64,000 bases of DNA, from the NCBI GenBank assembly GCA_964619625.1, contig CAZUFD010000001.1, positions 59,316 to 123,315 of the forward strand. The letters are read 5' to 3'. Positions 3,275-47,028 of this stretch are shown one piece after another. Source of the DNA: an uncultured Gammaproteobacteria bacterium (GTDB lineage Bacteria > Patescibacteriota > Patescibacteriia > Magasanikbacterales > GWA2-37-8). The position numbers were made by a program, and so were the translations under genes. Each line of letters begins with the position of its first letter. Position 1 is the first letter of the stretch. The notes below the pieces were generated by a model that was given only the letters and a program-made list of their open reading frames with translations, did not search any database and was not told the DNA's origin.

Positions 3275-3364
3275 GAAATTGATTATTTGTAATTGATTTT
3301 AAAAATTGTCCGACCAATATAGACATTCCTCGAGCGTTTAATTATCATACACTCATATCAAGCT

Positions 3365-4006: not shown

Positions 4007-4007
4007 T

Positions 4008-13731: not shown

Positions 13732-13812
13732 TATATGGGCTAAAGCCGCATATATTCTCATTCGCTCGGAAATAAATTAATACATTAATTTATTTCTCTC
13801 ACTCATTTCGAT
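13731..13812 (-). repeat. Intergenic bipartite-hairpin repeat, copy C, in reverse orientation. It fills the whole prfB-stop to tsaC-start gap.
   Basis: Contains ATATGGGC-TAAA-GCCGCATATAT and the perfect palindrome GAAATAAATTAAT-aca-TTAATTTATTTC. Its reverse complement aligns to copy A over about 75 nt, with compensatory changes in the GC hairpin. Confidence 0.7.
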
Positions 13813-16463: not shown

Positions 16464-16536
16464 AAGTGAGCGAATATAGTAATAAAGCTTGCTTTGTTAC
16501 TTTTGAGCGAACGAGAATATATGTGGCAAAGCCCAT
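16464..16536 (+). repeat. Intergenic bipartite-hairpin repeat, copy D
   Basis: GAAGTGAGCGAATATAGTAATAAAGCTTGCTTTGTTACTTTTGAGCGAACGAGAATATATGTGGCAAAGCCCAT is near-identical to copy A. Confidence 0.7.
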
Positions 16537-16559: not shown

Positions 16560-17150
16560 ATGCCAGAGGAGCAAGATGAGAGACGGCTCTCTAAGGAACA
16601 AAAAATGGGCATAATCTTGCTCTCTATTTTTGCTGTATTCGCCATTGGCTTAGGTTTCTTGCAGATCCGCAATACCATGTATGCGCCGTTTGCGCTCAAT
16701 AATAAAGTTCCGTATGTAGTCAAAGATGATATAGAAACAAACGAAGCGTTAATGTATCGCGACACAGATAAAGACGGCCTTAATGATTTTGATGAATTGT
16801 ACGTATATATCACCAGTCCGTATTTAGCTGATACTGACTCCGATGGTATAAATGATAAAACCGAAATAGAAAAAGGATCAAACCCAATTTGTCCAGAAGG
16901 CCAAGTTTGTTCCGAAGCAGCGCTAAGCGGTGATACGCTCCCCAACACCACACCAATCGCGTCGGCTAGTTCAACATTGGGGCCGCCGCCTTCGGCCGAA
17001 GAGCTAGAAAAAATATTAAGCAGTCCGGCCGAGACTCGCAAGATGCTGCTGGCCGCGGGCTTTGATAAAAAGATTTTAGATCAAACATCCGACGAGGAAT
17101 TAATGAAGATGGTCAAAGAAATTTTAAGTTCTACGAGTACTCGATTTTAG
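16560..17150 (+). CDS. Membrane-anchored protein with Asp-rich calcium-binding (thrombospondin type-3/dockerin-like) repeats
   Basis: N-terminal TM helix. Repeats DTDKDGLNDFDE and DTDSDGINDKTE. Confidence 0.5.
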   Translation: MPEEQDERRLSKEQKMGIILLSIFAVFAIGLGFLQIRNTMYAPFALNNKVPYVVKDDIETNEALMYRDTDKDGLNDFDELYVYITSPYLADTDSDGINDKTEIEKGSNPICPEGQVCSEAALSGDTLPNTTPIASASSTLGPPPSAEELEKILSSPAETRKMLLAAGFDKKILDQTSDEELMKMVKEILSSTSTRF

Positions 17151-17158
17151 TATGCTAG

Positions 17159-23100: not shown

Positions 23101-24757
23101 TATTAGAAATGGTTTGATTACAAAATATAATGGTCCAGTTTGGAATGTAGTAAGAAAGAACGGAAACGATCCAAATGAAGAAATAATTCAAAATGCTCAG
23201 CAGCTTTATAAAGAAGCTGTTAGTTTGGCACCTGGTCAGTATGTTTGGTCCGATGGACGAGATAGTAGATATTGGTATATACGTCATGATGATGGCCAAG
23301 GCGACGGTAACGATCATTATCAGTATGCTGATCCATATTCAGCTGCCACCGGCCCTTTTGCTGATCTGTTAAGATCAGACTGCGCTGGCAGTATAGATGT
23401 AAATGGTAGGGATGACTATCAAGGTGCTTGTTTAGGTATAAATGTAGATGATAACGATGATGGTTGTGCGATAAGGGTAGTCTTTGATCCGGATGGTCGT
23501 TTAAATAGAGTAAACCTGGTTTGTTTTACCGGTGATAGCGCTCAAAATGAAGGAAGATATTTCAATGTTTACGTAGGGCTGCGCGAACCTTGCGCCAATA
23601 TTGCTCAAACCGAAACAAATCCGTATACATCCGTTGGTTGGACAGACAGGTTGTGGCGTCAAAGTACATTTGCAATCCCAACATTAAATTATCGTAATTC
23701 ACTTATCAGTTCTCCATACGGTAGTTTGGCTATGCCAAGTTCACTTGTGCCGGATAAATTAATTAATCTCTTTACCCATTACAACAGCACTGTCTTTGAT
23801 CCGCCGCCTGCGGTGGCCGGTGCTCCTTATTCTTGTATTGGCACTTGTTTACAGACCAATCCAACGGCTCAAGAAGGTTTGTCTGGCACGGCCAGCCAAA
23901 GAACAGGTTTTCAAGGCCAAGAAAGTCTGGGACAAATTTTTGCCAAAGTTGATAATGTTTGGAATTGGGGCTTTAGTACTGTCAATTCAGCCTGGTCGTA
24001 TCAAGCAAATACAAGTCTTACTTATAACTTTACCGAAAGATCATCCGATGCCAATGCTCCGCAAGTCCGCGCTTTGGGAGCCTGCAGACCCGGAGGAAAA
24101 TGTTTGGAAGGTAATGTTGCCGGTATGAGTATAAACGATAGAGCCAGCGGTGATATCGTGTTTAATAGCAACGTTGGTGTTGTTAATGCCAAATTCTTTG
24201 GCTTTGCCAACCAAGATCAAATGCCAATTAGAAAAATTAAATTGGATTGGGGAGACGGCAATGTTGTTTCTCTAGACGGTTATTTCCGTAATCAGCGCGG
24301 CACTGTAAATGGTACCTGCGGATCTGGCGGCACTTGTCTGATTGGCTCGGTTGCCACAGGCAAGTCATGTTCCTCAAACAGCGATTGTACGAATATGGAT
24401 AATTGTTTTGCCGAAAGTCAGGCGCCAAACTTTGGACAGATTGCCGGTAAAACTTGTGACTCCGCCTATTTCCGATTTGATCATGTCTATCAGTGTTCTC
24501 GCGAAAGCAGTAGTTGGACAAATAGTTGTCCGAACGCGCAAGCCCAGAGTTTGTATGGCGGCTGTTGCGCGTTCCAGCCAAAAGTTCAATTAAAAGATAA
24601 TTGGGGATGGTGTAATGGAACTTGTACCGGCGGAGTTGGTGGCAATGGCTGCTATGATAGAGATTGGGGACCGGTGTTAGATCAAAGTTTAGAATGTAAT
24701 TCTTCGGGCGCATATACTCCGTTTGCCGGCAGGATTATAGTTATCCCGAATGATTAA
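17159..24757 (+). CDS. Giant (2532 aa) Cys-rich secreted/surface protein with a carbohydrate-binding-module-like segment; function unknown
   Basis: Single 7.6-kb ORF with an N-terminal TM/signal segment and more than 150 Cys residues. A CBM_4_9-like stretch (YDLTFWAKGAVGETVTVTLENNQV...LFLDNVRLKEV). The C-terminus carries short Cys-rich repeat patterns such as CDSDSDCAGGSC and CSSNSDCTNMDNC. Confidence 0.7.
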   Translation: MPVWRNMTKFQKFGIKFLLAVFTFITIGGSLFYVQPAKAFPVEITWDPGYVWSVYKSFIKDAAVSISIQTFSYFLRRVAYDSAVWLASGGKGQASFAYGKNFGDYLKDVGDSAAGVAIEALGEDFGFNLCKIPDPKIDLAMRIGLTYKFMDLKPDLNTGPGVREPTCTWSTFQNDVLSVDNWQSQFGSSDSIARKFNVAFSVEQTDIGILRGATDKINKYVAKKIEAETLQRQEGEGYLPKTTLISGDILAPGKNISEEAQAQNPNKQIEAAQAGFLTTLGTGAVGTIASAGSIFFNTLASQMLKNWQNKGMLPFGIGCVAGVGTECKDVQDTLSNLQGQVSRGGRQAAQALFSDLLTPPNIAVDQYNVLVNFTNCPTSPGPDNCVADAGLAQAAQEANSGRTVTIAEALEKNWLHAEWRLVSPDRVADNVDPGCHQRAYCYANIAKLRKARILPLGFEIAALNSNPDQPWTLKQVVDGFNDCNFIRDVNGNVVGVDNDPVNKPFCRLIDPNWVLKAPSSKCNFMAYGTSPYFSGTPNRIQECVNMSTCVAYDKDGNCATQGYCTREKNVWKIDAAKCDSQNRTCRTFQDSTGKTVSYLYRTLDTGFCNQDTVGCAEYSLKQNTAGNWVGYAENDLGSLGENSSVYFNNKVSTNCSSNSDGCSSFQVANSSEKLYLKKAPYYSQCYDTDLSTAAIDWPRTASDLNRLPNKPACNNYSQACIADEVNCNWYSPTSYTGDNIPGKYTPATVLEGQIVWNDQCDARCVGYAAYREMPSNYSNGQPVSYIIPSSGNSCNAVDEGCASFTNLGTTEGGLEKVEHYSYLRPCILPDTTKQKTFFTYEGSAVGGFQLKSFVLEKDTDGSPKYFYRTADDLATYAATCSQSLYQQGLANPDCRQFNDDQGAVYYKLLSKTIAVASNCTPFRLNDTELHDVALNEVNCLAQRGKWDATAGSCQVCFQNGEYRDGECFYYGLPGSTPNTAGTSKPCAAAVNTCRAYKGNTGNNVRNIFTNNFEQAVASDALAGWGPSADIAQSLESTRSGEHSLSYNGTGAVYKDILLTPGESYDLTFWAKGAVGETVTVTLENNQVSNLGTISVGDAWQNYHLGPIELAGNVSSTKLQFAVNGRLFLDNVRLKEVADFIYLVKNSLSVDPVCDSNLNDNLPGEALGCSQYQTPDNRPIYLTGFTSLCREKAIGCTAVYDTRNTPDEVGPRAYNVWLSGPEGQSTSRNIIGTEYRCQVALGQKGCYVHVTGANLSAIVAGGGAIVTSTIYVQPDSPTTTPLYLVASREATCSPVDLGCTKAGKLVQTPTGPTYTEVIVKKDPSSFNTTLCQQEAVGCNAYSSSDGALYFKDPQYLGQKVCAYRDNITKNGVRYNGWFWKGVGKCGAGAVSDPFCTKDSDCAAGVTCNQKDEQPCYPNYLQSGNSYGLWSYGVSSSYNNFVGECPATQNGCTEFIDRNENNKTYYLINDDRLKTQQTECNGQISEKSGCILLDKTDSPNKLWNTAASYAASAGQNNNLVAPVAGTGTATNDANVILKVSRDRECGEWLQCRSSHRVFDTQSGSYKEVCDAIGRCNKSLDSYSNTDFINCSNWLDNNHELSNQILTDDAYRNRNTTWKGQDFSGYSILNTFPVEELSEVNVGNATVADWRLAKTLACGGGPNCRSAADLNSPSCRSTSVGLPCGRNNAGVCLGSVNPVCVQDLDSPAVGVPRQSIAPSCRAYPEETSPFPNSQAINESLAFNSVNTCNENPGFSNDPAKYNSCECNYTKVTYGDAITKYWNFSNPNNEGILDANNQNLQGVVSGICVGGDSADRACDSDSDCAGGSCQKLKKQSRLIGWQGYCVEPDLSRPLNAEQNSFACLTWFPKDNITGAFDINNQHVEAGFQATETNGKYYCLEAKGYQETNSNTAVNGTGALTYNKLLGGVLVDHNGSNNTTNREKRVIAVSSGRPIYRDEIDYILISPGTGGGSWFPNTSEPFLSFYIRNGLITKYNGPVWNVVRKNGNDPNEEIIQNAQQLYKEAVSLAPGQYVWSDGRDSRYWYIRHDDGQGDGNDHYQYADPYSAATGPFADLLRSDCAGSIDVNGRDDYQGACLGINVDDNDDGCAIRVVFDPDGRLNRVNLVCFTGDSAQNEGRYFNVYVGLREPCANIAQTETNPYTSVGWTDRLWRQSTFAIPTLNYRNSLISSPYGSLAMPSSLVPDKLINLFTHYNSTVFDPPPAVAGAPYSCIGTCLQTNPTAQEGLSGTASQRTGFQGQESLGQIFAKVDNVWNWGFSTVNSAWSYQANTSLTYNFTERSSDANAPQVRALGACRPGGKCLEGNVAGMSINDRASGDIVFNSNVGVVNAKFFGFANQDQMPIRKIKLDWGDGNVVSLDGYFRNQRGTVNGTCGSGGTCLIGSVATGKSCSSNSDCTNMDNCFAESQAPNFGQIAGKTCDSAYFRFDHVYQCSRESSSWTNSCPNAQAQSLYGGCCAFQPKVQLKDNWGWCNGTCTGGVGGNGCYDRDWGPVLDQSLECNSSGAYTPFAGRIIVIPND

Positions 24758-24772
24758 AATTTATAGATAACA

Positions 24773-24803
24773 AAAAATCTCCCAAATGGGAGATTTTTTG
24801 TTC
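24773..24803. terminator. Bidirectional rho-independent terminator between the giant gene and the convergent lipoprotein gene
   Basis: AAAAAATCTCCCA-aa-TGGGAGATTTTTTG is a perfect 8-bp stem flanked by A-runs and T-runs. Confidence 0.7.
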
Positions 24804-24889
24804 TACTCAAAAGAAGAGATTCTTCTGTTAAGTTGAAGGCGCGGCTCGGACAGTTGAAGGTCCGGCTCGCGCTGGTTGATGGTGGGGTG

Positions 24890-25324
24890 TTAGCCGCATG
24901 TACATTGCTGGGTGTGGTTCGCCGTCGTGGTGCAAGCGAAGCGTCCGTCGTCCTGGAAGTCCTCCAAAGTCGGCATTGCCTGACATGCCTCCAGACAGAA
25001 GGCGTAACAGGTGCCATTCTCTACGACAAACCGCAAGGTGCAGCTGTTCCAGCTGTTATCACCGAGGTTGCACGAACATGCCGTTTGCGTGACCTGTGTG
25101 CGGTACATCGCACAGACATCCGTCGGCGCATCAGTCATGGTCGTGTTGGCGTCGGGGCAGGTGGCGGAGTTGCCGCAACCATTGCCGTCGGGGGGCAGGT
25201 TGCCACCATCCACTTCCGTGGTGTCGTCATCACCATCGTCGGGCGAACTGCCGCAGCCGGCGGTCAGTGCCAGGACCAGGAAGACGAGGGAAACAGCCTT
25301 CGTAACCGTGTAGTTGTAGCTCAT
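24890..25324 (-). CDS. Cys-rich (17 Cys) small lipoprotein encoded in a high-GC (about 60%) islet
   Basis: Lipobox LALTAGC after a signal peptide. G/C dominates third codon positions. The region carries overlapping ORFs on both strands, as expected for high-GC DNA. The minus frame is chosen because of the signal/lipobox. Confidence 0.5.
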   Translation of the reverse strand: MSYNYTVTKAVSLVFLVLALTAGCGSSPDDGDDDTTEVDGGNLPPDGNGCGNSATCPDANTTMTDAPTDVCAMYRTQVTQTACSCNLGDNSWNSCTLRFVVENGTCYAFCLEACQAMPTLEDFQDDGRFACTTTANHTQQCTCG

Positions 25325-25894
25325 CTGAGTCTCCTTCGTCGCTTATGGCGACTTGTTGGGAATTGGGTCGCCTTGGGCGACGAGGTAAGCGTGACGATTA
25401 CCTAGGTCATTAACTGCCTCGTTTTTCGGAGCAATTAGCGACCTGGGTAATCCCGCTTTACTTATGTTTTTTCCACCATCAATTATTGGCTAAATTTGGA
25501 GTTTCCTCTAAAGTTAGCACTTTTTAAAGAGCGTGTTATCTTACGATAACGACCAATTATAGCATATTTTCAGGGTTTTGTCAACCCTGGCCGTAGCCAT
25601 AGTAGGATGCACAAAAAAGTCCTCGCACGCACCCCATTCTTTGTTTGAGAAAATTTTTATCAAACAAAGAACAGGCACCTGCTATGTATGCGCCTACCGG
25701 AAAAATCATTCGTTTCTTATTTCTTAAATCATTATACACCCTATTGCCGTTATTGTTACATAGGCACTTATGCACAGCCCATAAACTCATAAAAAATATT
25801 GTTTCTTTTATCCACAATTCGCTTTTTTAAGCGGCTTTTTAATTGTTGACTGAGCCAAAATATGATACAATTACTTTACCATAATTGATACAGA

Positions 25895-28800
25895 ATGCTT
25901 GCGAGACTTAAAAATAATTTATTTTTGGTTTTCAGTAAAGGCTGGAATTTTTTGCGTCCTCGTCAGAAGCTTGGGTTAATCAGTTTTGTAATTATTTCAA
26001 GTTTAATTATAGCTGTCTGGTTTATATTCACTCCCGTATCTTACGCGCAGAGTTTGGCTGGGGCGGGTGAGTGGCTTCTGGAATTATTTTCCGATCTTCT
26101 CTTTGCGCTTGCCGGTCTTTTTATTAAGCTAACTTTTTTCTCTCTAAAATTTATTATAGAAGTAGCCGGCTACAATGGCTTTATAGATTCTCCGGCGGTA
26201 ATTGTTGGCTGGGTAATGGTGCGCGACATTACCAATATGTTTTTTGTGGTGGTACTGCTTATTATATCTTTCGGCACGATTTTGGGCTTAGAACAATATG
26301 AATATAAAAAATTATTGGTCAAGCTTCTCATGGCTGCAGTTATCGTAAATTTTAGCCGTCTGATCTGCGGACTCATTATAGATATTGCCCAAGTGGTGAT
26401 GATCACATTTGTAAACGGAATTGCGGCCACGGCGAGCGGCAACTTGGTAAACATGTTTCAGGTAGATCAGATATTTAAATTGGCTGAAGGACAAACAACC
26501 AAAGTTGGTTCTACCTTTGAAATTTTTTTGGCAGCCGTAGCCGCGATTGTGTTTGCCACCATGATGCTTGTTACCATGCTAACTTTTTTGTTTTTACTCT
26601 TGGCGCGTATGGCCATGCTTTGGGTGCTCATCGTTTTATCTCCATTTGCCTTTGTGTTAAATGTTTTGCCGCAGACAGAAAAATACGCCAGTCAGTGGTG
26701 GGAGCAGTTTGGAGGCCATGTCGTAGCCGGCCCCATCATTGCTTTTTTTCTTTGGTTGTCATTTGTAACCGTCGGCGCGGGCACGGCTTTTGATGAAATT
26801 AAAAAACATAATGCTTTGCCGCAAGATCAAACTACCGTCTCGCCTGAAGAAGAGCAAACTGGCGTTACTCAAATCATGAGTTGGGCAAAGATGGCAAATT
26901 TTGCAATTGCAATTGCAATGCTGCTTGCGGGCGCGAAAATGGCTGAACAGCTTGGTGTAGTTGGCGGAGGTTTGATGGGCAAAGCCGGAGAGCTCGGAGG
27001 GAAAGTTGCCAGGTATGCTTCCGGTTTACAGGCTGCCAGATGGACTGCGGGTAATGTGCTAAAGCCGGCAGCCAAGTTAGCTGGGCAGGGTCTTTATTAT
27101 GGAACTAATAGAATTCCAGGACTTGCCGGTATTCATCCCGAAGCTTGGAAGCGCAGAGGTAGGAATATTAAAAGCAGAGTGGTAGGTTGGTATAATGAAG
27201 GAAAAGTTAAAGGCACGGTACAAGCCGGAGAAATTTCTAAAGCTTTTAAAGTAAATAAAAAAGGCGAGTATGTAAAGGGTAAAGAAAAAGTAAAAAAGGT
27301 AGATGAGAAGGGTGATATTATGTATGAAAAGGATGAACATGGTAATTATAAGCTCGATAAACAAGGAAATAAAATTGCCATGTACGAAGAAGCAAGAGAC
27401 AAGGAAGGGAACATTTTGAGAGATAAGGATAACAATGTTATTTATAAAGAACAAGAAATTTTGCAGAGCGGTGCGGGTGATTGGTTTAAACGGCAATTTG
27501 CGCGCGCAAGATTAGAGTTTGGAGGGGGTTATGATGCTTTCCATCAGGCTTATTCTGAAGATTTGGAAGCAACAGCAGAAGCGAAGCATGAACAGCTTGA
27601 TCATTTGGCAAGTACTAGCAGTTTGCCTGTAGGTTTGGAGAAACAAAAAGCCAAGGAGTGGCTAGAATTTTTGGAACATACAGGTACTGATATTAAACTC
27701 GGAAAAGCAGCAGATATGGATAAGCTGCGAGAGGATATCATGCACACTATTGAACATGGTGGGCCAGATGTAAATAAAAATCTTGCGAAGCTTGGCTTGA
27801 ATGACAAGGAAATCTTTAAGGCAAAAGAAGGTTTTGACAGGTTTAATAGATCAATGCAGTATAAGGCTAGTACTAAAGTTGCAAAAGAATATGTTGGAGA
27901 AGAGCATAAGAAGCAAGAATTAAAGGCATTACAAAAATATCTTGGAAAAGCAGAAGGTGTTACTTTGGAGAGCAAGACAGCCGAATTAAAAGCAGGGACA
28001 AAACAGATTGAAGAAAAACTGCAGTCACAAAAAGAATTGGAGGAGTTAAAAGAAATAAAGAAATTGCTAGAAGGAAAGGGTGAAAAAGTTCAAGCAGTTA
28101 TACTCTCTACCAGAGCCGAGCTTTTAAATTCTAAAGAGGCTGTAGATATAAAAAATGAAGAAGACAGTTTGCGCGCGCGAGCCCGAGATTATGTAAAGCG
28201 CGGAGAAGAAGATAAGGCGGAAGCGTATCTGAGAAGAGCTGATTCTTTGGGTTTGGAAAAAGCCAGAGAAGCAACCAAAAATTTGTCTGGTGATGAAATG
28301 GCAGCGCGCGCGGCTCTTTTAGCAAACAGGTTAGTTGCAGCTAGAAAAGTTGGTAATGAAGATGAGATTAATGCTTTGGTTCAAAAGTTAGCAGTGCTTA
28401 GAAGTACTGCTATGACCCAGCCTGCCTGGATTAGTCCAGTGGTAGATCGCGAGATAGAAAGAGCTATAGGTATCACTGCTGCCCAAAAGGCTGGCATGAC
28501 ACCGCAACAATATAATTTATCTTTGGATTTAGGTAAAATTTCTGGTGTTAAAAGAGTCGCGACTGACGCAGGCGAGTTAGAAAGTCGTTTAGGGGGTCCA
28601 GCAAAAAATCAAGCTTATTTAAGAGATAGAAGATTGGCAGTAGAAAGCGCTCTTGAGAAGTCAAGGCGCGAGGTTGCGGGAACAATTGAACCTGATTATG
28701 ATAGAGACAAAGGAAAGGTAATATATAGAGTGGTGACAGTTGCAGATTCAAAAAAATCAGATGCTGAGTATATGGCTTGGAGTAAGAAGGTAGATTTAAC

Positions 28801-29080
28801 CACTTCAGCCGGAGCCCCTATTTCTAATTTAGGTCGTGATACAAGCGGTAAGATTTTAAAAGAAGCTTTACAAACATGCGCAACAGAAGTTGAATTAATG
28901 GCCAGCAAGCTGGCAGGTTTAACTGCAAATCAGTTCAATAGAATTCCTAAAGTTATTGAGGATTTGCAAAAATCAGATGATGAAGTAAAAAAAGCGATAG
29001 TAGCAATGGTTCAGGCAAATGATGGTCATAATAAAGATTTCTTGAAACAATTAAAGTCTGCCTTAAATGTTGAAGATTAA
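25895..29080 (+). CDS. VirB6/TrbL(PrgH)-like polytopic membrane protein with a roughly 700-aa K/E-rich coiled-coil C-terminal extension
   Basis: The N-terminal 300 aa have about 6-7 TM helices, in a position expected for a T4SS VirB6 analog. The rest is a low-complexity KE-rich helical region. The call rests on context and architecture. Confidence 0.5.
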   Translation: MLARLKNNLFLVFSKGWNFLRPRQKLGLISFVIISSLIIAVWFIFTPVSYAQSLAGAGEWLLELFSDLLFALAGLFIKLTFFSLKFIIEVAGYNGFIDSPAVIVGWVMVRDITNMFFVVVLLIISFGTILGLEQYEYKKLLVKLLMAAVIVNFSRLICGLIIDIAQVVMITFVNGIAATASGNLVNMFQVDQIFKLAEGQTTKVGSTFEIFLAAVAAIVFATMMLVTMLTFLFLLLARMAMLWVLIVLSPFAFVLNVLPQTEKYASQWWEQFGGHVVAGPIIAFFLWLSFVTVGAGTAFDEIKKHNALPQDQTTVSPEEEQTGVTQIMSWAKMANFAIAIAMLLAGAKMAEQLGVVGGGLMGKAGELGGKVARYASGLQAARWTAGNVLKPAAKLAGQGLYYGTNRIPGLAGIHPEAWKRRGRNIKSRVVGWYNEGKVKGTVQAGEISKAFKVNKKGEYVKGKEKVKKVDEKGDIMYEKDEHGNYKLDKQGNKIAMYEEARDKEGNILRDKDNNVIYKEQEILQSGAGDWFKRQFARARLEFGGGYDAFHQAYSEDLEATAEAKHEQLDHLASTSSLPVGLEKQKAKEWLEFLEHTGTDIKLGKAADMDKLREDIMHTIEHGGPDVNKNLAKLGLNDKEIFKAKEGFDRFNRSMQYKASTKVAKEYVGEEHKKQELKALQKYLGKAEGVTLESKTAELKAGTKQIEEKLQSQKELEELKEIKKLLEGKGEKVQAVILSTRAELLNSKEAVDIKNEEDSLRARARDYVKRGEEDKAEAYLRRADSLGLEKAREATKNLSGDEMAARAALLANRLVAARKVGNEDEINALVQKLAVLRSTAMTQPAWISPVVDREIERAIGITAAQKAGMTPQQYNLSLDLGKISGVKRVATDAGELESRLGGPAKNQAYLRDRRLAVESALEKSRREVAGTIEPDYDRDKGKVIYRVVTVADSKKSDAEYMAWSKKVDLTTSAGAPISNLGRDTSGKILKEALQTCATEVELMASKLAGLTANQFNRIPKVIEDLQKSDDEVKKAIVAMVQANDGHNKDFLKQLKSALNVED

Positions 29081-29085
29081 TTTGT

Positions 29086-30096
29086 ATGTCGGTATATCCA
29101 AATTTTAAAAATTTATCTCCTGCGGAACTTGAGCAAGAAGAATTAAGATTTAATTCTAAAATTAGTAATGCGGAATTAGCCGATGAGGCGTGGGAACAGC
29201 TCGCTAATTTATTTGATCAAAATTCAGATTTGAAACAGGCCTATAGGGTTTCTTATTGGAGATGGTTTGTGATATTAAGCTGGCAAAAAGTATACGCGGT
29301 TTCTCCGGAGATGCTGCTACTCATGATGAAAGACCAAGTTCCTGCGGCAATATTTTCTAATGTTGACGTACTTGAGGTACTTCTGCGGTATTTGGCTCAA
29401 AATTTTTATTCTCGAGATGATGCCGGTATTTTTATTAATAAATTAAAATCAGAATTTTTCGGATCGGAAATGGTTTTTGGAGACTGGCAAGGACAAAACA
29501 TTAAAATAAAAGATATTATTTCCGAATATTTTTTATTGAATAAAAGAGGCGCTGACTCAATAGAGACCGCGGAATTTATCAATAAATTAAGACAGTTGAT
29601 GTTTCCAAAAGATGCGTTATCATATGCTTATGTAGACCCAGATGAAGGGGTAAACAGATTTTTGGCTTTGATTAATTTTTTTCAAGATATAGATGATGAT
29701 AAGAAAATTCGTGACGTGTTAAATATGTTTTTGCTTCCCGAGAATGCCCCTGGCATTATTCAGGGAGAAAATGCTAATGAAAGCCTAGAATCAACAGCGG
29801 AAGAAACTGGGCCAGTGCCTCAACCAGCTACAGAAGAAAAAACTGAAGTTGAAAAAAATATTGTGCAACCTAGCTATCAAAAAATCCCAGCAGTAGAGCC
29901 GCAAGCTCGGCTCACAGCGGAACAGGTAAAATCCCAAATAGAAAAAGAATTTAAAAAAGACGCGGAAGGAAACTTTGAAAATATAGAAGGTGTCATGCAA
30001 AAACTGGCTGAATTATCGGAAAAATATAATGATCCTAGAGTTGCGGACATGTTGTATTTTGACGAAGAGTCAAATCAATTTAAGTGGAGCGTGTAA
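29086..30096 (+). CDS. Hypothetical soluble protein in the T4SS-like cluster
   Basis: ORF with tight spacing to its neighbours. No recognisable motifs. Confidence 0.45.
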   Translation: MSVYPNFKNLSPAELEQEELRFNSKISNAELADEAWEQLANLFDQNSDLKQAYRVSYWRWFVILSWQKVYAVSPEMLLLMMKDQVPAAIFSNVDVLEVLLRYLAQNFYSRDDAGIFINKLKSEFFGSEMVFGDWQGQNIKIKDIISEYFLLNKRGADSIETAEFINKLRQLMFPKDALSYAYVDPDEGVNRFLALINFFQDIDDDKKIRDVLNMFLLPENAPGIIQGENANESLESTAEETGPVPQPATEEKTEVEKNIVQPSYQKIPAVEPQARLTAEQVKSQIEKEFKKDAEGNFENIEGVMQKLAELSEKYNDPRVADMLYFDEESNQFKWSV

Positions 30097-30105
30097 CATG
30101 CATAT

Positions 30106-31299
30106 ATGGCCGAGCCAATGATTACAATTAAGAAGCCGGACGGAACTTTTACCAAAGTTCCGCTTAGTGAATTTAAAAAAATGCAGGCAAAACCTGCGCC
30201 AAGTCCTGCGGCTGCGTCTGTCCCGGCAGTTGAAATAAAAAAACAAATGGAAGCAGCAATTGAACCTGTTAAGAAAGAACCGGAAGTTGAAACACATAAG
30301 CCGCTCGCATCTCATGTTCATCGTGCGCATGCTGCTCACGCGGCATCTAAACATCCGGTAGAAATTAAAAAACATACATCCGCGCATCACGCAACTCACG
30401 CTCATAAAAAATTAACTCGTGAAGATGCCAAATCTCCGTTGGAGGAAAAGATGCCGGTAAAAACTGACGCGCCTATGGTGAGCGCTAAACGTGACGATCA
30501 GGTAGAGGAAGTGATCAGGAAAATTGGTTTTGGGGTGGCGCCGGATTTGCAAGGCAGATTGAAAAGTCTGATTCTGGCCAAGTTAAAAGATATAAAAAGT
30601 GAAGATGAGATGCGAGATATGCTTTTGCGTCCGGTAAAAAATAGCGGCTTGGGATTATCCGAAGGACAGGTAGAAAAAATTATTAAATTGTGTCGAGAAG
30701 TATTGGGAGCTAATGCTGCAAAAGCTGCAAGTGATAATGCGCAGACGCCAATTTTGAAAGGCAAATCCAGCGGCATGGCACTTATGGTAGAACCGCCCGA
30801 ATTACCAATGGTGATACCTGTAAAAAGCAGCTTTTCTGTGAAAAATTCCACTCCGCCGGTAGCGCCCAACAAATCCGCAACCGATACCATTGTTTCAAAG
30901 ATAATAAAGGAAAACATGGTTGACGAGCCGATGTTTAAAATTAGCAATAAGCCCGCAGTCAGACAAGTAGTACAAGATATTTCCGTTCCGGATATGGAAA
31001 TGGGACCGGTGGAAGAGTTTAAATCAATAACTATCACTGAATTTAGAAGATTGTCCAGCAATCCGGAAGAAGCGGCCAAACGACTATATCAAAAAATGTC
31101 CAATTTGCAAGAAGAATCATTCGTGTGGTATTTGGATGCAGTCGCGGCATATCATAACTCGCCGCTATATTTGGAATATATGTCGGTGGTAAGCCAGTCG
31201 CTGGCGGAAAGAAAATCACTGGCGAATGTACTTGCGGCAAAAAATGGTATAAAATTAAATGAGATGATGGCAATTATTGAAATGGAAAAAATGTTATAA
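30106..31299 (+). CDS. Hypothetical protein with a His/Ala-rich segment
   Basis: HVHRAHAAHAASKHP...HTSAHHATHAHKK. The rest is unrecognised. Confidence 0.45.
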   Translation: MAEPMITIKKPDGTFTKVPLSEFKKMQAKPAPSPAAASVPAVEIKKQMEAAIEPVKKEPEVETHKPLASHVHRAHAAHAASKHPVEIKKHTSAHHATHAHKKLTREDAKSPLEEKMPVKTDAPMVSAKRDDQVEEVIRKIGFGVAPDLQGRLKSLILAKLKDIKSEDEMRDMLLRPVKNSGLGLSEGQVEKIIKLCREVLGANAAKAASDNAQTPILKGKSSGMALMVEPPELPMVIPVKSSFSVKNSTPPVAPNKSATDTIVSKIIKENMVDEPMFKISNKPAVRQVVQDISVPDMEMGPVEEFKSITITEFRRLSSNPEEAAKRLYQKMSNLQEESFVWYLDAVAAYHNSPLYLEYMSVVSQSLAERKSLANVLAAKNGIKLNEMMAIIEMEKML

Positions 31300-31306
31300 T
31301 ATTAAT

Positions 31307-31741
31307 ATGGATCAATTTGTCGTGCCACAATTTATAGAAGTAGAAGATAAGATTTTTGGTCCAATTACGACCAGACAGTTTATTATTTTACTTGTGGCCG
31401 CTTTGATTTTATTTATCACTTTCAAATTAGCGGATACGGCCCTGTTTATTTTTTTGGCTGCGCTTATTGGCGGGTTGGCGCTAATTATCGCGTTTGTAAA
31501 AATAAACGGCCAGCCGTTTCATTATTTTTTACTAAATCTAGTTCAAACCGTTCGCCGCCCCAGTCGTAGGATTTGGTACAAAGATTTTACTAAGGCCGAA
31601 CTAACGGAATCAATTAAATCCGGAAAAATAGAGGTCGTAGAAGCCGTAAAAGAAGTGCCAAAAATGTCATATAGCCGTATTCGCGATCTGTCTCTTATTG
31701 TAAACACTGGCGGTTATTATAGTGGAAGCGAGCGAGAATAA
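31307..31741 (+). CDS. PrgI/VirB3-like small two-TM protein of Gram-positive-type T4SS
   Basis: Start chosen at MDQFVVPQFIEVEDKIFGPITTRQFIILL. Two TM helices, lying directly upstream of VirB4 as in the prgI-prgJ arrangement. Confidence 0.5.
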   Translation: MDQFVVPQFIEVEDKIFGPITTRQFIILLVAALILFITFKLADTALFIFLAALIGGLALIIAFVKINGQPFHYFLLNLVQTVRRPSRRIWYKDFTKAELTESIKSGKIEVVEAVKEVPKMSYSRIRDLSLIVNTGGYYSGSERE

Positions 31742-31815
31742 TACATTATGTATAATGTATTATCGAGCGAACGACACTATATGCGGCCTTTAGGCCCATA
31801 TAGCCAGCGAGCATG
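31741..31815 (+). repeat. Intergenic bipartite-hairpin repeat, copy E. It starts at the stop codon of the upstream gene.
   Basis: ATACATTAT-gt-ATAATGTAT hairpin, then GAGCGAACGAC, then CTATATGCGGCC-TTTA-GGCCCATATAG hairpin. Confidence 0.6.
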
Positions 31816-31832
31816 AATAGTAAATAATACAT

Positions 31833-32510
31833 ATGGAAGAAAAGCCAAAGAAAAAGAAAATTAAAGTCCCCAGCGCTCAAAGCCATCTCCCGTTTGCGGA
31901 GGTGAAGTTTGATACGGTAATCATGAAAGATGGAACATTGCGGGCGGTGCTTATGGTGTCCAGTATAAATTTTGCTTTAAAGAACGAAGATGAGCAAAAC
32001 GCGATTATTTCTTCGTATGTTTCTTTTTTGAATGGCATTGATTTTCCGCTGCAGATTGTGGTGCAATCTCGGCAGCTATACATTAAACCATATTTGGAAA
32101 AGTTGTTAAAAAAAGAACGTGAACAAACCAATGAATTATTGCGCGTACAGATAGCCGATTACAGATCATTCGTATCCGAACTCGTAAGCCTGGGAAATAT
32201 TATGAGCAAACAATTCTTTGTAGTTGTTTCGTACGATCCGCTTTCCAACAGAAAAAAAGGTTTTTGGTCTAGAATTAAAGAGGTAGTTAATCCAGCCGTC
32301 ACTATAAAATTAAAAGATGAACGGTTTCAACTGCGCAAACACGATCTTGATATGAGGGTGCGCCAAATAGAATCGGGATTAACCAGCATGAATTTAGAAG
32401 TGGTCAGACTGGACACGCAATCATTGATAGAATTATTCTATTCCACCTATAATCCTGATATTGCGTTTAGCGAGCATTTGCCCCCCGTAAATGAACTAAG
32501 AGTGGAATAA
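31833..32510 (+). CDS. VirB4/TraE/PrgJ N-terminal domain fragment. It is in the same frame as the downstream ATPase ORF, separated by one TAA.
   Basis: LRAVLMVSSINFALKNEDEQNAIISSY matches the conserved N-terminal region of conjugative VirB4-family proteins. The stop at 32508-32510 is followed in frame by the ATG at 32523. Confidence 0.6.
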   Translation: MEEKPKKKKIKVPSAQSHLPFAEVKFDTVIMKDGTLRAVLMVSSINFALKNEDEQNAIISSYVSFLNGIDFPLQIVVQSRQLYIKPYLEKLLKKEREQTNELLRVQIADYRSFVSELVSLGNIMSKQFFVVVSYDPLSNRKKGFWSRIKEVVNPAVTIKLKDERFQLRKHDLDMRVRQIESGLTSMNLEVVRLDTQSLIELFYSTYNPDIAFSEHLPPVNELRVE

Positions 32511-32522
32511 TTTAAGAATTAT

Positions 32523-34394
32523 ATGGCTTTTAAACCAAAATTTGCTACCGGATCATTTTCCAAACAGAAGGGGCCTTTGACTAGCAAGGAAGAAGAGATC
32601 AGTAAAAAATCCGGTGAGGAACTTGTAACCCTGGAAGAAGAAAGGGTATATCGTGAAGGCACGGTTTCCATTAAGGATTTGCTTGCGCCTTCGGCTTTTA
32701 ATGTTGAATCAAATTTTGTAAAGTTAGGCGATATATTTTGCCGGACGATTTTTGTTGTAACGTACCCGAGGTATATTTCCATCGGCTGGAGTTCGCCGGT
32801 ATTAAATTTATCCATCACGATGGATGTGGGAATGTTTTTCTATCCCGTAAAATCCGCCATTATTTTAAAACAGTTAAAAAATAAAGTCGGCGCCTTGGAA
32901 GCGCAGCTTAACGCGGATTCGGAAAAAGGCGCGCCGCGCGACCCGGTGCGTGAAACGGCTTTGCGTGATATTGAACAGTTGCGTGATGATCTAACTCAAG
33001 GTATTGAACACTTTTTCCAATTCTCATTTTACGTAACCCTTTACGCCAAAAGCAAAGAAGAGCTTGACCAAACTTCGGAAGACGTGGAAAATATTTTTGG
33101 CTCCAAACTTATTACCAGCCGTAAAGTTTTATATCAGGCTGAGCAGGGTTTTAATTCCACTTTGCCGCTGGCCAATGACGAACTGATGATTTCATTTAAC
33201 TTAAATTCTTCGCCGATTGCCGCGTCTTTTCCATTTACTTCCGCCGAACTTACTTCCGATGATGGTATTTTGTATGGCGTCAATCGCCACAATAACAGTC
33301 TTATTTTGTTTGATAGATTTTCTTTACAGAATGCCAATATGGCCGTGTTTGCGACCTCCGGTGCCGGTAAAAGTTACGCGATTAAATTGGAAATTTTGCG
33401 CAGTATGATGATGGGGGTTGATGTTATCGTAATTGACCCGGAAATGGAATATAAACATTTGGCCGATGCCGTGGGCGGAACCTATATAAACATTTCTCTT
33501 TCTTCCGAAGCCAAAGTAAATCCGTTTGATTTGCCTAGACCAACCGGCGGAGAAGATTTTTCCACCGAAGATATTATTCGCGGCGCCGTTATAACCGTAA
33601 AAGGTTTGCTTCGTATCATGCTTGGCAATCTTACCACGGAGCAGGATTCTATTATAGACAGAGCGCTTATTGAAACATACGCTAAAAAAGATATTACGCC
33701 CGAAGCGGATTTGGCTGTAGTTCAGGCGCCGATAGTGCAAGATTTGCAAGAAATTTTGGAAGGCATGGAAGGCTCCGGAGATTTGGTATTAAGACTTAAA
33801 AAATATACCGAAGGTACGTTTAGCGGGCTCTTCAACGCTCCAACCAATGTGGACATGAAAAATCAACTCGTGGTATTTAGCGTGCGTGATTTAGAAGACG
33901 AGCTTCGTCCGATGGCTATATACGCGATTGTTAACTATATTTGGAATGTTGTACGTTCGGAACGAAAGAAGAGAATTTTGGTAATTGATGAGGCATGGTG
34001 GCTGATGCAGCACGAAGATAGCGCGCGGTTTATTTTTGCCTTGGTTAAGCGCGCCCGCAAATATTATTTAGGAGTTACAACCATTACCCAGGATGTAAAT
34101 GACTTTTTAAAATCACAGTACGGTCAGGCTATAGTTACAAACTCCGCTTTGCAGCTCTTGCTCCGCCAGTCACCGGCGGCCATTGATTTGGTGCAAAAAG
34201 TTTTTATCCTTACCGAAGGCGAAAAATATTTACTCTTAGAGAGTGGAGTAGGGGAAGGGATATTTTTCGCCGGTAATAAGCATGCGGCTATAAAGGTGGT
34301 AGCTTCGTATACCGAAGATCAGCTCGTAACCACCAACCCGGAGCAGCTCTTAGAAATAGAAAGGTCTAAAAAAGAATTTGAAAAACAAATATAA
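32523..34394 (+). CDS. virB4: Type IV secretion ATPase VirB4/TrbE/CagE family (central and C-terminal ATPase domains)
   Basis: Walker A ATSGAGKSYAIKLE, Walker B ILVIDEAWWLM, and the YPRYISIGW region typical of VirB4. Confidence 0.8.
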   Translation: MAFKPKFATGSFSKQKGPLTSKEEEISKKSGEELVTLEEERVYREGTVSIKDLLAPSAFNVESNFVKLGDIFCRTIFVVTYPRYISIGWSSPVLNLSITMDVGMFFYPVKSAIILKQLKNKVGALEAQLNADSEKGAPRDPVRETALRDIEQLRDDLTQGIEHFFQFSFYVTLYAKSKEELDQTSEDVENIFGSKLITSRKVLYQAEQGFNSTLPLANDELMISFNLNSSPIAASFPFTSAELTSDDGILYGVNRHNNSLILFDRFSLQNANMAVFATSGAGKSYAIKLEILRSMMMGVDVIVIDPEMEYKHLADAVGGTYINISLSSEAKVNPFDLPRPTGGEDFSTEDIIRGAVITVKGLLRIMLGNLTTEQDSIIDRALIETYAKKDITPEADLAVVQAPIVQDLQEILEGMEGSGDLVLRLKKYTEGTFSGLFNAPTNVDMKNQLVVFSVRDLEDELRPMAIYAIVNYIWNVVRSERKKRILVIDEAWWLMQHEDSARFIFALVKRARKYYLGVTTITQDVNDFLKSQYGQAIVTNSALQLLLRQSPAAIDLVQKVFILTEGEKYLLLESGVGEGIFFAGNKHAAIKVVASYTEDQLVTTNPEQLLEIERSKKEFEKQI

Positions 34395-34420
34395 TAGAAA
34401 TTAGAATTTAATAAAAATGT

Positions 34421-35002
34421 ATGTCACTTCGCGCTCGTATTTTCATTATTATCAGTGTTATAATGCTTCTGGTTTTAGCGGTAAGCATATTCTTAATCGT
34501 AAGAAACAAAAATAAAAAAACCGAAAATGCAAATCCGACAACTGCCACCACCAGCACAAGTAATAATACTCAGTCGGGCAGTCAGGTCGTGGTAGATGGC
34601 CAGCTACCAGCCGGACTAACGGCCCGAACGCCAACCTCGCTAGAGGTGGAAAAAAATAGCGTAGAGCAGCTCGCTAAAATTTTTGTAGAGCGATACGGAT
34701 CGTATTCTACGGATAATGAATTTCAAAATATTAAAGAATCAGAATCGTTGGTTACAAAGTCGTTATGGACAAAAATCAGCGCCGGTATGAACATAAAGCC
34801 CGGTAAAGATTTTGTAGGCGTTACCACTAAAGTGATTAGCGCAAGTATTGCCGATTGGACAGCTAGTAAAGCTACAGTACAGTTGCGACTCATGAGAGAA
34901 GAAAATAAAAATGGCGTAGTGTCTACTCGTTATCAAAATGCAACCGTGGAGATGGTTAAACAAGGTAATGTATGGTTGGCAAACGCGCTCGTTTGGAATT
35001 AA
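34421..35002 (+). CDS. Hypothetical membrane-anchored protein. Its size and position are compatible with a VirB8-like component, but this is speculative.
   Basis: N-terminal TM helix plus a roughly 150-aa extracytoplasmic domain. Confidence 0.4.
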   Translation: MSLRARIFIIISVIMLLVLAVSIFLIVRNKNKKTENANPTTATTSTSNNTQSGSQVVVDGQLPAGLTARTPTSLEVEKNSVEQLAKIFVERYGSYSTDNEFQNIKESESLVTKSLWTKISAGMNIKPGKDFVGVTTKVISASIADWTASKATVQLRLMREENKNGVVSTRYQNATVEMVKQGNVWLANALVWN

Positions 35003-35637
35003 TTAAAGGCTGGGTAAAAGACTGTCTCTTTCCCAAATTTTGTGTCGGTTGCAAAGCAGAAGATCTGTGGTTATGCGATGGTTGCGCTGGTAAAATTATC
35101 AAGATAAAAAATACTTCTTCTTCGGAAAGTAAGGCCCTGGCCCATATTGATGGGGTGGCGGCCTTATTTGATTATGGCGAAAATATAGTTTCAGAATTGA
35201 TTAAACTGTTTAAGTATAATTATATAACAGAACTTACGGAAGTATTTAGAAAAATTGTTAATGATATTAATGTAGAGTTTGATAATAAAAATTTTGTGAT
35301 TATGCCCGTACCGCTGCATCCGCGCCGCCAGCGGGAAAGAGGGTTTAATCAGTCTGAAATTTTGGCAGAAATTTTTGCTGAAAAATTACATTTGCAAGTA
35401 AATAAGGATTTGCGCCGCGTTATTTATACGCAGCAGCAAGCGGCACTATCGGCCGAAAAGCGGTTGGTTAATTTAAAAGATGCCTTTGCTTTTGATGCTG
35501 TGGGGCAAGCAGTTCCGGAGAGAGTTTTATTGGTAGATGATGTATTTACGACTGGAGCCACGATGAGCGAGTGTGCCAAGGCGCTGAAAAATAAAGGAGT
35601 AAAGACTGTTTGTTGTTTAGCGCTGGCTAAAGGCTGA
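34972..35637 (+). CDS. comFC: ComF family protein (ComFC), a phosphoribosyltransferase-type competence protein
   Basis: N-terminal CxxC...CxxC zinc finger (CVGCKAEDLWLCDGC) and the PRTase motif VLLVDDVFTTGATM. Confidence 0.75.
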   Translation: MVGKRARLELIKGWVKDCLFPKFCVGCKAEDLWLCDGCAGKIIKIKNTSSSESKALAHIDGVAALFDYGENIVSELIKLFKYNYITELTEVFRKIVNDINVEFDNKNFVIMPVPLHPRRQRERGFNQSEILAEIFAEKLHLQVNKDLRRVIYTQQQAALSAEKRLVNLKDAFAFDAVGQAVPERVLLVDDVFTTGATMSECAKALKNKGVKTVCCLALAKG

Positions 35638-44407: not shown

Positions 44408-44409
44408 AC

Positions 44410-45942: not shown

Positions 45943-46071
45943 AGTATATAGTATTGATTTTAGAAACTTACTATATCATAGGAAAGCGGCCGAGACAATA
46001 AAATTGACAAAATGATTCCGTAGGATTACTGTTATTATTGATTCTTTTTATGTTTTAAACAAGTAAAACGT

Positions 46072-47007: not shown

Positions 47008-47028
47008 AATTATTTGCTTGCTTAACCC

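Follow-up and report, generated by a model that had tools for sequence, protein, structure and literature searches.

The cluster at positions 25895-35637 of the DNA analysed here, a 64-kb stretch hereafter called the window, raises two questions: what kind of machine its genes encode, and what that machine might carry. The original prediction was a type IV secretion system (T4SS)-like cluster ending in comFC and lying immediately downstream of a giant Cys-rich protein. As predicted, eight tightly packed genes, all on the + strand, were confirmed, in the order extended VirB6, p336, p397, PrgI/VirB3, TrsD, VirB4 ATPase, VirB8-like 193-aa protein and ComFC. Across related loci, the median intergenic gaps from VirB6 to ComF ranged from -1 to 26 nt. 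The giant gene is less close than had been stated, as a 1.1-kb spacer containing an opposite-strand lipoprotein gene (24890-25324) intervenes. We consider it very probable that the locus is a chromosomal relaxase-less T4SS typical of Patescibacteria, arranged as in class ABY1 (Candidatus Magasanikbacteria); this confidence concerns the identity of the locus and does not extend to its substrate. T4SSs of this kind were already published in 2025, including the link between ABY1 and comF and the TrsD split (PMC12102498). The novelty here is a fast-swapping segment within the cluster, a hypervariable module at 27077-29927 that, judging from sequence comparison, is bounded by recombination. Also new is the upstream position kept by the 2532-aa Cys-rich protein, its 196-aa partner and a hypervariable lipoprotein gene. 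The features are listed below.

16560..17150, +, 196-aa protein with a membrane anchor and a TSP3-type calcium-binding repeat; opens a conserved upstream gene pair
17159..24757, +, Cys-rich protein of 2532 aa, anchored at its N-terminus
24890..25324, -, gene for a Cys-rich lipoprotein of 144 aa, hypervariable in sequence, in the spacer separating the giant gene from virB6
25895..27076, +, N-terminal domain of the extended VirB6 (aa 1-394), polytopic and of VirB6 fold
27077..29080, +, C-terminal domain of the extended VirB6 (aa 395-1061), hydrophilic and rich in K and E; forms the left part of the hypervariable module
29086..30096, +, p336, 336-aa soluble protein of no assigned family; variable N-terminal 280 aa, conserved C-terminal 56 aa
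30106..31299, +, p397, soluble protein of 397 aa and no assigned family; has a His-rich linker and is a conserved component specific to the lineage
31307..31741, +, PrgI/VirB3-like two-TM protein (PF12666; two hydrophobic helices)
31763..31783, +, 21-nt intergenic motif TCGAGCGAACGACACTATATG upstream of trsD (direct repeat D2)
31833..32510, +, TrsD-like protein, in which the N-terminal domain of VirB4 stands alone
32523..34394, +, VirB4 ATPase, comprising the middle and C-terminal P-loop domains
34421..35002, +, VirB8-like bitopic 193-aa protein: N-terminal TM helix, disordered linker, NTF2-like domain
34972..35637, +, ComFC, ComF-family competence protein of phosphoribosyltransferase fold

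Gene families and chromosomal setting

The Gram-positive-style VirB3/4/6 core that had been proposed was recovered by both family and fold matches. In profile searches, the two-TM protein read as PrgI/VirB3-like matched PF12666 above cutoff (E 1.2e-10, 42 bits against 27). Because PrgI orthologues measure 141-159 aa, its start is most likely the ATG at 31307 rather than the TTG at 31277 chosen by the ORF finder. The 623-aa VirB4 also exceeded the cutoff, for NF045971 of the CD1110 family (E 9e-107, 358 bits against 325, profile positions 174-730 of 752). It further matched PF19044 (E 4e-27) and the solved VirB4 structure 4AG5 (E 4e-49), contains the motifs GAGKS (P-loop) and ILVIDE (Walker B), and has a weak P-loop match to CedB. 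The 225-aa TrsD ORF matched TrsD/TraD NF041427 (E 2e-8, below the curated cutoff), the N-terminal positions of VirB4 models (again below cutoff) and PF11130 TraC (E 5e-4), and members of its 90% cluster carry the name TraC family protein. The intergenic motif TCGAGCGAACGACACTATATG ahead of trsD has a second site at 16503, upstream of the 196-aa gene, and five matches in the window against 0.05 expected; at the equivalent position it is shared only with the closest relative, L003.

The small anchored protein, singled out earlier for its VirB8-like size, does have the VirB8 fold in its predicted structure. Its gene is overlapped by comFC over 31 nt. ComFC matched the whole of TIGR00201 (E 2e-29, profile positions 1-190 of 190), below the curated cutoff, and GntX (E 1e-24), and carries a four-Cys N-terminus and the VLLVDDVFTTGAT motif. 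It was syntenic in 32 loci (median gap 4 nt) and was detected in 32 of the 45 loci with a VirB8-like gene, a shortfall that stems partly from contig ends. With the MBL-domain gene of ComEC at 1499 and the end of the ComEC channel domain in the same window, the suggested link to competence is borne out.

Could TrsD and VirB4 be a single virB4 of a decaying system, interrupted by a nonsense mutation or through faulty sequencing? Only a TAA stop and 12 nt lie between the two ORFs, which together are collinear with full-length VirB4 models. However, the second ORF has its own ATG, 55 of 56 related loci keep the split with TrsD almost constant in length (223-230 aa), and no other genes of the locus are as conserved as these two (88-99% identity in the closer relatives L001-L014). 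Indeed, no T4SS component is commoner in Patescibacteria than a separate TrsD, which also occurs in pGO1-type systems (Quinonero-Coronel et al. 2025, PMC12102498). Since the split is conserved, we give a broken or frameshifted gene practically no credence; the N-terminal and ATPase ORFs originally read as VirB4 are TrsD plus VirB4, in their normal arrangement. It is likewise very improbable that the cluster is a remnant or a working module of an integrated Gram-positive-type conjugative element whose relaxase and coupling protein are encoded elsewhere. In support of such an origin, VirB4 scores best with the model of the CTn2 CD1110 conjugative family, TrsD, PrgI and VirB8-like proteins occur in conjugative MPF-FATA systems, and many Patescibacteria have coupling protein (T4CP) homologues far from virB4 (PMC12102498). 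Yet no ORF of at least 120 aa in the 64-kb window matched a relaxase or VirD4 (T4CP) family, in line with the absence noted at the outset, and neither an integrase nor a tRNA-adjacent att site was found there. The cluster resembles the rest of the window in composition (GC 0.404 vs 0.413 for the window) and has housekeeping genes as neighbours, namely PrfA, Sua5 and KsgA at one end and the SUF operon at the opposite end. Its gene order is kept in ~50 Candidatus Magasanikbacteria genomes, in dozens of them with the same KsgA and SUF flanks; this shared position, together with VirB4 proteins that are 74-99% identical among the genomes keeping it, points to vertical inheritance. Besides, only 103 Patescibacteria genomes have a relaxase, whereas virB4 genes number 2,474 (PMC12102498). 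All this agrees with the earlier view that the locus is no ordinary conjugative element. A VirB1-like hydrolase was not found in the window, nor, in a crude screen on hydrophobicity only, was a VirB2-like pilin or pilin array.

The hypervariable module and the upstream genes

VirB6 answered to its first description as a polytopic protein with a KE-rich extension: the N-terminal VirB6 fold is followed by a hydrophilic domain (K 12%, E 10%) in which the predicted model has repeated beta-hairpins (459-523) and a helical domain modelled with confidence (~740-1050). This C-terminal domain and the p336 N-terminus make up the hypervariable module. Its identity was 15-40% between genomes with VirB4 99-100% identical, and the VirB6 C-terminal domain likewise kept 15-40% amino acid identity in three otherwise near-identical pairs. 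When compared with L003, positions 27077-29927 showed no nucleotide similarity, whereas the flanks were 90% identical.

The next two genes encode proteins with no predicted signal peptide (no hydrophobic segment in p336, no TM segment in p397) and no match in Pfam, NCBIfam or PDB. Close pairs of p336 were 18-54% identical at the N-terminus vs 56-96% at the C-terminus, and the full lengths of its 281 representatives at 50% identity were all similar. p397, found in 62 related loci, is the protein previously noted as His-rich, with 11 His in a 50-residue stretch; its homologues are Patescibacteria hypothetical proteins only. With a conserved position, no known family and confinement to Patescibacteria sequences, the genes at 29086-31299 fit the proposal that they are lineage-specific components.

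Further upstream, the median gap between the 196-aa gene and the giant gene is 4 nt; both genes precede VirB6 in related loci, the giant gene doing so in most of 80. The 196-aa protein has one N-terminal hydrophobic helix and a match to PF18884 below cutoff (E 4e-4). The giant protein, with 104 Cys, a single N-terminal hydrophobic helix and a weak CBM_4_9 match, is a candidate surface or adhesin component syntenic with the T4SS. The lipoprotein gene has a lipobox (LTAG|C), 13 Cys and a GC content of 59.5%, vs 41.3% for the window, and a perfect sigma-70 consensus lies upstream of it (25584-25556). A minus-strand lipobox ORF was present in the same spacer in all 12 loci inspected, with sequences that do not align.

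Possible transport function

Judging from R388 and from Gram-positive MPF-FATA architecture, VirB6, PrgI and the VirB8-like protein would form a membrane translocon. By established T4SS architecture, PrgI would tether the TrsD/VirB4 ATPase, which would drive assembly and transport, and a monoderm envelope would dispense with VirB7, VirB9 and VirB10. Because no relaxase or coupling protein was found in the window, we do not take the apparatus for a conjugative donor machine. The reading to which we commit is that of a contact-dependent channel, which would operate where the epibiont meets its host, with the giant Cys-rich protein and the lipoprotein as candidate surface partners. For the Magasanikbacteria lineage, substrate and direction of transport are what we infer. 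To our knowledge, a DNA-handling T4SS with neither relaxase nor T4CP is an importer, as with H. pylori ComB and archaeal Ced. Since comFC is, in addition, translationally coupled, we tentatively favour for this class, at somewhat below an even chance, that host DNA or nucleoprotein would be imported and passed to ComFC. The usual partners of ComFC are ComEC and ComFA rather than a T4SS, and co-regulation could by itself account for its position in the operon. The ComEC sequences inside the window speak for DNA import, and in H. pylori, whose uptake uses the ComB T4SS, ComFC handles incoming ssDNA (PMC9005727).

A possible alternative, to which we give roughly one chance in three, is that the same machine exports protein effectors or provides a general passage to or from the host cell, a role proposed for Saccharibacteria. 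In that case ComFC would simply be co-transcribed, and the substrates or cytoplasmic adaptors would be p336, p397 or the C-terminal domain of VirB6. Wang et al. suggested that the relaxase-less T4SS of Southlakia may export proteins (PMC10633639). There, the T4SS is essential for epibiotic growth (PMC10633639; PMC12857230) and ComEC is dispensable (PMC12857230), which argues against a simple competence role in that organism. p336 and p397, without signal peptide or TM segment and sited inside the operon, would suit such a role, and the variable body and conserved C-terminal 56 aa of p336 are compatible with a C-terminal T4SS signal. However, that C-terminus was found on no other protein architecture among the 150 representatives listed and in the flanks of 80 loci, and is thus unlike a shared secretion signal. 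Moreover, the T4CP, the usual substrate receptor, is absent from the window, and the overlap couples ComFC translationally.

Comparison with known systems

No essential difference separates this locus from the T4SSs of the Patescibacteria VirB4 clade (PMC12102498), in which a chromosomal virB4 with adjacent TrsD, PrgI/VirB3 and VirB6 comes without a relaxase. In that survey KsgA lies near virB4, VirB8 occurs mostly in ABY1, and comF, recG and radA are found in ABY1 T4SS loci; our locus follows the ABY1 arrangement, with a detectable VirB8, KsgA nearby and comF within. The survey does not describe p336 and p397, the hypervariable module formed by the VirB6 C-terminal domain and p336, or the neighbouring genes for the giant Cys-rich protein and the lipoprotein, and it reports no adhesin. 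VirB2-like pilin arrays, common in other Patescibacteria classes, were not seen in this window.

The only relative tested experimentally is the T4SS of Candidatus Southlakia epibionticum ML1 (SEML1_0006-0019; Wang et al. 2023, PMC10633639), which likewise has Gram-positive-like subunits and no relaxase. In Southlakia, six VirB2-like pilins form an essential array, peptidase and lysozyme genes lie downstream of virB4, and no structural VirB8 homologue was detected (PMC12102498). The present locus differs in its clear predicted VirB8 fold, its ComFC and its extended VirB6, and a pilin array was not detected.

In MPF-FATA systems, namely pGO1/pSK41 Trs (TrsC-TrsD-TrsE) and C. difficile CTn2 (CD1110), TrsD is likewise separate and precedes the VirB4 ATPase; these systems share the VirB3-like two-TM protein and VirB8-fold proteins and have no outer-membrane core. 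Unlike our locus, they lie on mobile elements with a relaxase, T4CP, cell-wall hydrolase and oriT. The pGO1 subclass is without a recognisable VirB6 (PMC12102498), and MPF-FATA VirB6 measures ~300 aa, vs 1061 aa here. H. pylori ComB, which works with ComEC and ComFC, and archaeal Ced are also T4SS-type machines without relaxase and T4CP. Both import DNA, as our locus may, with H. pylori ComFC acting after uptake (PMC9005727); ComB differs as a diderm MPF-T system with VirB7, VirB9 and VirB10, and Ced has other membrane parts.

Finally, F-plasmid TraG and the Rickettsiales VirB6 paralogues resemble the extended VirB6 in that an N-terminal polytopic VirB6 domain precedes a large hydrophilic C-terminal domain. 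In F-like plasmids, this C-terminal domain, TraG* (residues 452-939), sets the allele-specific recognition of TraS, the entry-exclusion protein. The traS gene lies directly downstream of traG, which would be a parallel to the co-varying pair formed here by the VirB6 C-terminal domain and the next gene.

Gene content of the cluster

The cluster (window 25895-35637) holds eight plus-strand ORFs, exactly those listed in the original prediction: VirB6, two soluble proteins of 336 and 397 aa (p336 and p397), PrgI/VirB3, TrsD, VirB4, a 193-aa VirB8-like protein and ComFC. The 154-aa ORF proposed as PrgI matched PF12666 over its cutoff (E 1.2e-10). The VirB4 assignment was confirmed by the match of the 623-aa ORF to NF045971 (CD1110 family, VirB4-like conjugal ATPases; E 9e-107, 358 bits for a cutoff of 325). 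This ORF carries P-loop and Walker B motifs, matched the solved VirB4 domain 4AG5 (E 4e-49) and was 74-99% identical to orthologues in Magasanikbacteria MAGs. Judged by its sequence, the VirB4 ATPase shows MPF-FATA affinity; a Patescibacteria VirB4 clade related to MPF-FATA has been described (Quinonero-Coronel et al. 2025, PMC12102498). Homologues of VirB3/PrgI and VirB6 lie close to virB4, as published for Patescibacteria, in which TrsD is the most abundant T4SS component (PMC12102498).

TrsD lies directly upstream of VirB4, with a TAA stop and 12 nt between the two ORFs. For the 225-aa ORF, matches under the curated cutoffs were obtained to the TrsD/TraD model NF041427 (E 2e-8) and to VirB4 models at their N-terminal positions. 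It spans the N-terminal part of these models, and the 623-aa protein spans CD1110 positions 174-730 of 752. A separate TrsD ORF of 223-230 aa was present in 55 of 56 related loci, and no other genes of the locus were as conserved as TrsD and VirB4 (88-99% identical in L001-L014, the closer of the related genomes). Since the split is conserved and affects the two most conserved genes, the pair is the normal arrangement and no pseudogene. An alternative genetic code behind the split was excluded, as the stop is TAA and the split is conserved.

The proteins of 1061, 336, 397 and 193 aa had no family match in Pfam or NCBIfam. In the 1061-aa protein, residues 1-345 contain about eight hydrophobic segments, and K and E make up 12% and 10% of the tail that comes after. 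The 120 homologues listed were all Magasanikbacteria or Patescibacteria proteins of 612-1643 aa. Residues 1-385 were strongly conserved (68 invariant columns across 39 sequences), and 4 of these 39 homologues matched TrbL/VirB6 PF04610 (best E 2e-6), in agreement with the VirB6 identity first proposed. From the homologue lengths, the conserved N-terminal part and the PF04610 matches, the protein is an extended VirB6 as the 2025 T4SS review uses the term, that is, a polytopic VirB6 domain with a large hydrophilic C-terminal domain. In the model of the latter, beta-hairpin repeats (459-523) and a confident helical domain (~740-1050) were seen; no structural relatives specific to this modelled domain were found, and the full VirB6 alignment profile gave coiled-coil noise only against PDB sequences. 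Hydrophobicity counting was ambiguous as to the side of the membrane, in or out, on which the C-terminal domain lies; VirB6 of R388 is mostly outside the membrane (2025 T4SS review).

The 193-aa protein is bitopic, with an N-terminal TM helix followed by an NTF2-like domain, and its VirB8 fold is confident. Alignments for structure prediction were built from protein-search hits. No VirB8 or PrgL profile match was obtained for this protein in Pfam, NCBIfam or PDB sequences, and the family profiles of the 193-, 336- and 397-aa proteins retrieved nothing meaningful from PDB sequences and Pfam. Profile-profile comparison revealed no relationship between p336, p397 and the VirB6 C-terminal domain. 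The 221-aa ORF matched TIGR00201 over its full length (E 2e-29; 103 bits, under the cutoff of 234), in support of its designation as ComFC. Its CxxC...CxxC and VDDVFTTGAT motifs point to a Zn-finger N-terminus and a PRT-fold C-terminus with a PRPP-type motif. The VirB8-like gene and comFC overlap by 31 nt; comFC was syntenic in 32 loci, and ComFC is translationally coupled to the T4SS machine. No Rfam family was found in or near the cluster.

Chromosomal setting and conserved neighbourhood

Upstream of the cluster lie genes for PrfA, Sua5, a DUF4015 hydrolase-like protein and KsgA, then for a 196-aa anchored protein and a 2532-aa Cys-rich protein (hereafter the giant protein). Downstream, on the minus strand, is the SUF Fe-S operon. 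The chromosomal position of the cluster was constant in dozens of genomes, and its GC content was 0.404 vs 0.413 for the window. As had been claimed, the cluster does not look conjugative: no ORF of at least 120 aa in the 64-kb window had a relaxase or T4CP family match, and without either the machine cannot be a conjugative donor. No integrase family match was found in the 64-kb window, the other larger ORFs being ordinary genes or ORFs without family match. A crude hydrophobicity screen of the window for VirB2-like pilin candidates revealed no small ORF with a signal peptide and two helices; genes for such pilins are frequent, albeit not universal, by virB4 (PMC12102498). According to the same study, relaxases are rare, VirB8 homologues occur almost only in the ABY1 class, KsgA is frequent by virB4, and ABY1 loci commonly hold comF, recG and radA (PMC12102498). 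Here, ComFC represents comF; the window showed neither recG nor radA. Altogether, the locus is most probably a chromosomal, MPF-FATA-related Patescibacteria T4SS with a housekeeping context.

Species-representative genomes were scanned with a VirB6 alignment. This gave 333 relatives, and 80 loci were kept, almost all from Candidatus Magasanikbacteria. The recurrent order was 196-aa gene, giant gene, VirB6, p336, p397, PrgI, TrsD, VirB4, VirB8-like gene and ComF, with the KsgA and SUF flanks also kept in closer genomes, so the synteny check suggested at the outset came out in favour of the cluster. Median gaps from VirB6 to ComF were -1 to 26 nt, and the distance from the giant gene to VirB6 was variable (median 1.2 kb). 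The unassigned genes at 29086..31299 had been put forward as lineage-specific components; the recurrent gene order upholds this, p336 and p397 being conserved, lineage-specific and soluble. All p397 homologues were unnamed Patescibacteria proteins, and p336 had 281 representatives at 50% identity, with a single architecture among those listed.

The 196-aa TSP3-repeat anchored protein and the giant protein (104 Cys) are encoded by a tight pair of genes (window 16560-24757; median gap 4 nt), which keeps its place upstream of virB6 across Magasanikbacteria. The original prediction had the cluster immediately downstream of the giant gene, which proved inexact: a 1.1-kb spacer intervenes, with a minus-strand lipoprotein gene at 24890-25324. 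The lipoprotein is Cys-rich (13 Cys), and its gene has a GC content of 59.5%, vs 41% for the genome. In 12 of 12 loci inspected, this spacer held a minus-strand lipobox ORF, with sequences too divergent to align. The spacer also contains a perfect sigma-70 consensus at 25584-25556. Five intergenic copies of a 21-nt motif, TyGAGCGAACGAnnnTATATG, were found in the window, for 0.05 expected:

4797-4817, plus strand, 21-nt motif
9524-9544, minus strand, 21-nt motif
13749-13769, minus strand, 21-nt motif
16503-16523, plus strand, 21-nt motif
31763-31783, plus strand, 21-nt motif

The copies at 16503 and 31763 precede the 196-aa gene and trsD, respectively. Among the 80 related loci, the motif occurred in the closest relative only. 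The motif could serve as a promoter or operator, or else represent a small repeat element.

Several features elsewhere in the window were noticed. Three tandem genes at 2573-4571 encode proteins of 233, 213 and 187 aa with an N-terminal anchor and similar N-terminal layouts, without family match. At 42047-47992 is a cluster of peptide-modification-like genes, including those for a 786-aa fusion of a sugar-transfer-type ATP-grasp and a MATCAP-like carboxypeptidase domain, a PKD and 7TM-transglutaminase-associated membrane protein, and two RimK-like ATP-grasp proteins. All tRNA genes are over 12 kb distant from the T4SS cluster. One, a tRNA-Ser with anticodon ACT (ARAGORN) at 49023-49112 on the minus strand, adjoins a tRNA-Ser(GCT) at 48500-48585; a serine tRNA with A34 would be unusual and may be a miscall. 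Finally, a 751-aa ORF at 56292-58547, without Pfam or NCBIfam match, coincides with the window's strongest GC skew (0.30) and strongest AT skew.

A hypervariable module in VirB6 and p336

The closest relative, L003 (JACOYB010000004.1), was 90-94% identical in nucleotide sequence to window 16538-37721, with 27077-29927 as the main exception, where no BLASTN match was obtained. Smaller gaps separated other aligned blocks (e.g., 24618-25331), and the giant protein diverged at about aa 1900-2100 and over its last 32 aa. The module at 27077-29927 is a recombination-bounded variable tract of 2.8 kb, made up of the VirB6 C-terminal domain and p336 residues 1-280. Protein identity to L003 changed in steps: 95% for VirB6 residues 1-395, 30% for the VirB6 C-terminal domain, 35% for the p336 N-terminus, 73% for the p336 C-terminus, 89% for p397 and 99% for VirB4. 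The same pattern recurred in three independent close pairs (L002/L006, L026/L027 and L021/L041). Divergent versions of the module could still be aligned over their full length and are therefore homologous alleles rather than unrelated cassettes. The VirB6 N-terminal domain had the same nearest neighbour as VirB4 in 24 of 31 loci, the C-terminal domain in just 4 of them. In 12 of the 31 loci, one and the same nearest neighbour was obtained for the C-terminal domain and the p336 N-terminus, for about one locus expected by chance; a few of the p336 N-terminal values are trimming artefacts. The identity steps and this neighbour pattern indicate allelic replacement of a co-inherited unit.

A diversity-generating retroelement is an unlikely source of the hypervariability, as there was no reverse transcriptase, no template/variable repeat pair, and the tract is 2.8 kb long. 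The conserved p336 C-terminus was also considered as a shared secretion tag, an idea we rejected since it was confined to positional orthologues and one architecture among the 150 representatives listed and the flanks of the 80 loci.

If F-like plasmids with their allele-specific TraG-TraS recognition, or polymorphic recognition loci generally, are taken as a guide, the module might be a co-inherited, recombination-swapped specificity cassette in an otherwise highly conserved T4SS operon, a proposal we consider rather unlikely. If it were true, partner specificity could concern which host the epibiont taps, or exclusion among sibling cells on a self vs non-self basis. Further surface determinants would then come from the hypervariable lipoprotein and the giant Cys-rich protein, and Patescibacteria would gain a modular device for host range or kin recognition within a T4SS core subunit.

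Substrate and comparison with known systems

By the precedent of R388 and of Gram-positive systems, the translocon would consist of VirB6, PrgI and the VirB8-like protein, and TrsD/VirB4 would act as the motor. With a monoderm envelope, an outer-membrane core would be unnecessary. As for the substrate, we tentatively favour contact-dependent import of host DNA, which would be passed to ComFC. The 31-nt overlap of comFC and its synteny speak for it. So does the window's other competence content: the first bases of the window (1-273) encode the tail end of a Competence (PF03772) membrane domain that is cut off by the window start, and a separate TM-anchored ComEC-type MBL domain (TIGR00361 positions 420-663, E 6e-44) is encoded 1.2 kb further on, at 1499-2362. 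ComEC thus appears split, with a methyltransferase gene and a gene without known function between the two pieces. Moreover, the known T4SSs that handle DNA without relaxase and T4CP are importers. In H. pylori, whose uptake is served by a T4SS, ComFC acts on incoming ssDNA (PMC9005727), which also argues for import.

Protein export, or a general conduit, is nearly as likely as DNA import. Among T4SSs, only that of Saccharibacteria is known to be essential for the growth of the organism that carries it. In the Saccharibacteria epibiont Southlakia epibionticum, an experimentally tested relative, T4SS genes are essential for epibiotic growth, no relaxase or coupling protein is recognisable, and protein export has been suggested (PMC10633639). 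ComEC is dispensable for growth of this organism (PMC12102498, PMC12857230). These data count against a purely ComEC-linked role. As for DNA import, the coupling of ComFC offers a concrete hypothesis for ABY1.

Since its features were published (PMC12102498), the locus belongs to an already described system. It adds to the well-resolved examples of the Patescibacteria T4SS and does not overturn current views. The confident VirB8-fold subunit completes a VirB3/4/6/8 inner-membrane core in ABY1. The hypervariable module is a new detail within the published system: the VirB6 C-terminal domain, co-varying with the next gene, is where specificity may reside, and it provides population-genomic markers for partner matching. 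Compared with DNA-uptake systems of the ComB type, which have an MPF-T set with VirB7, VirB9 and VirB10 and for which DNA import is demonstrated, no VirB9 or VirB10 match was found here, and any resemblance would be functional only. The closest precedent for the module is TraG of the F plasmid, another extended VirB6, in which recognition of the cognate TraS by the C-terminal domain depends on the allele.
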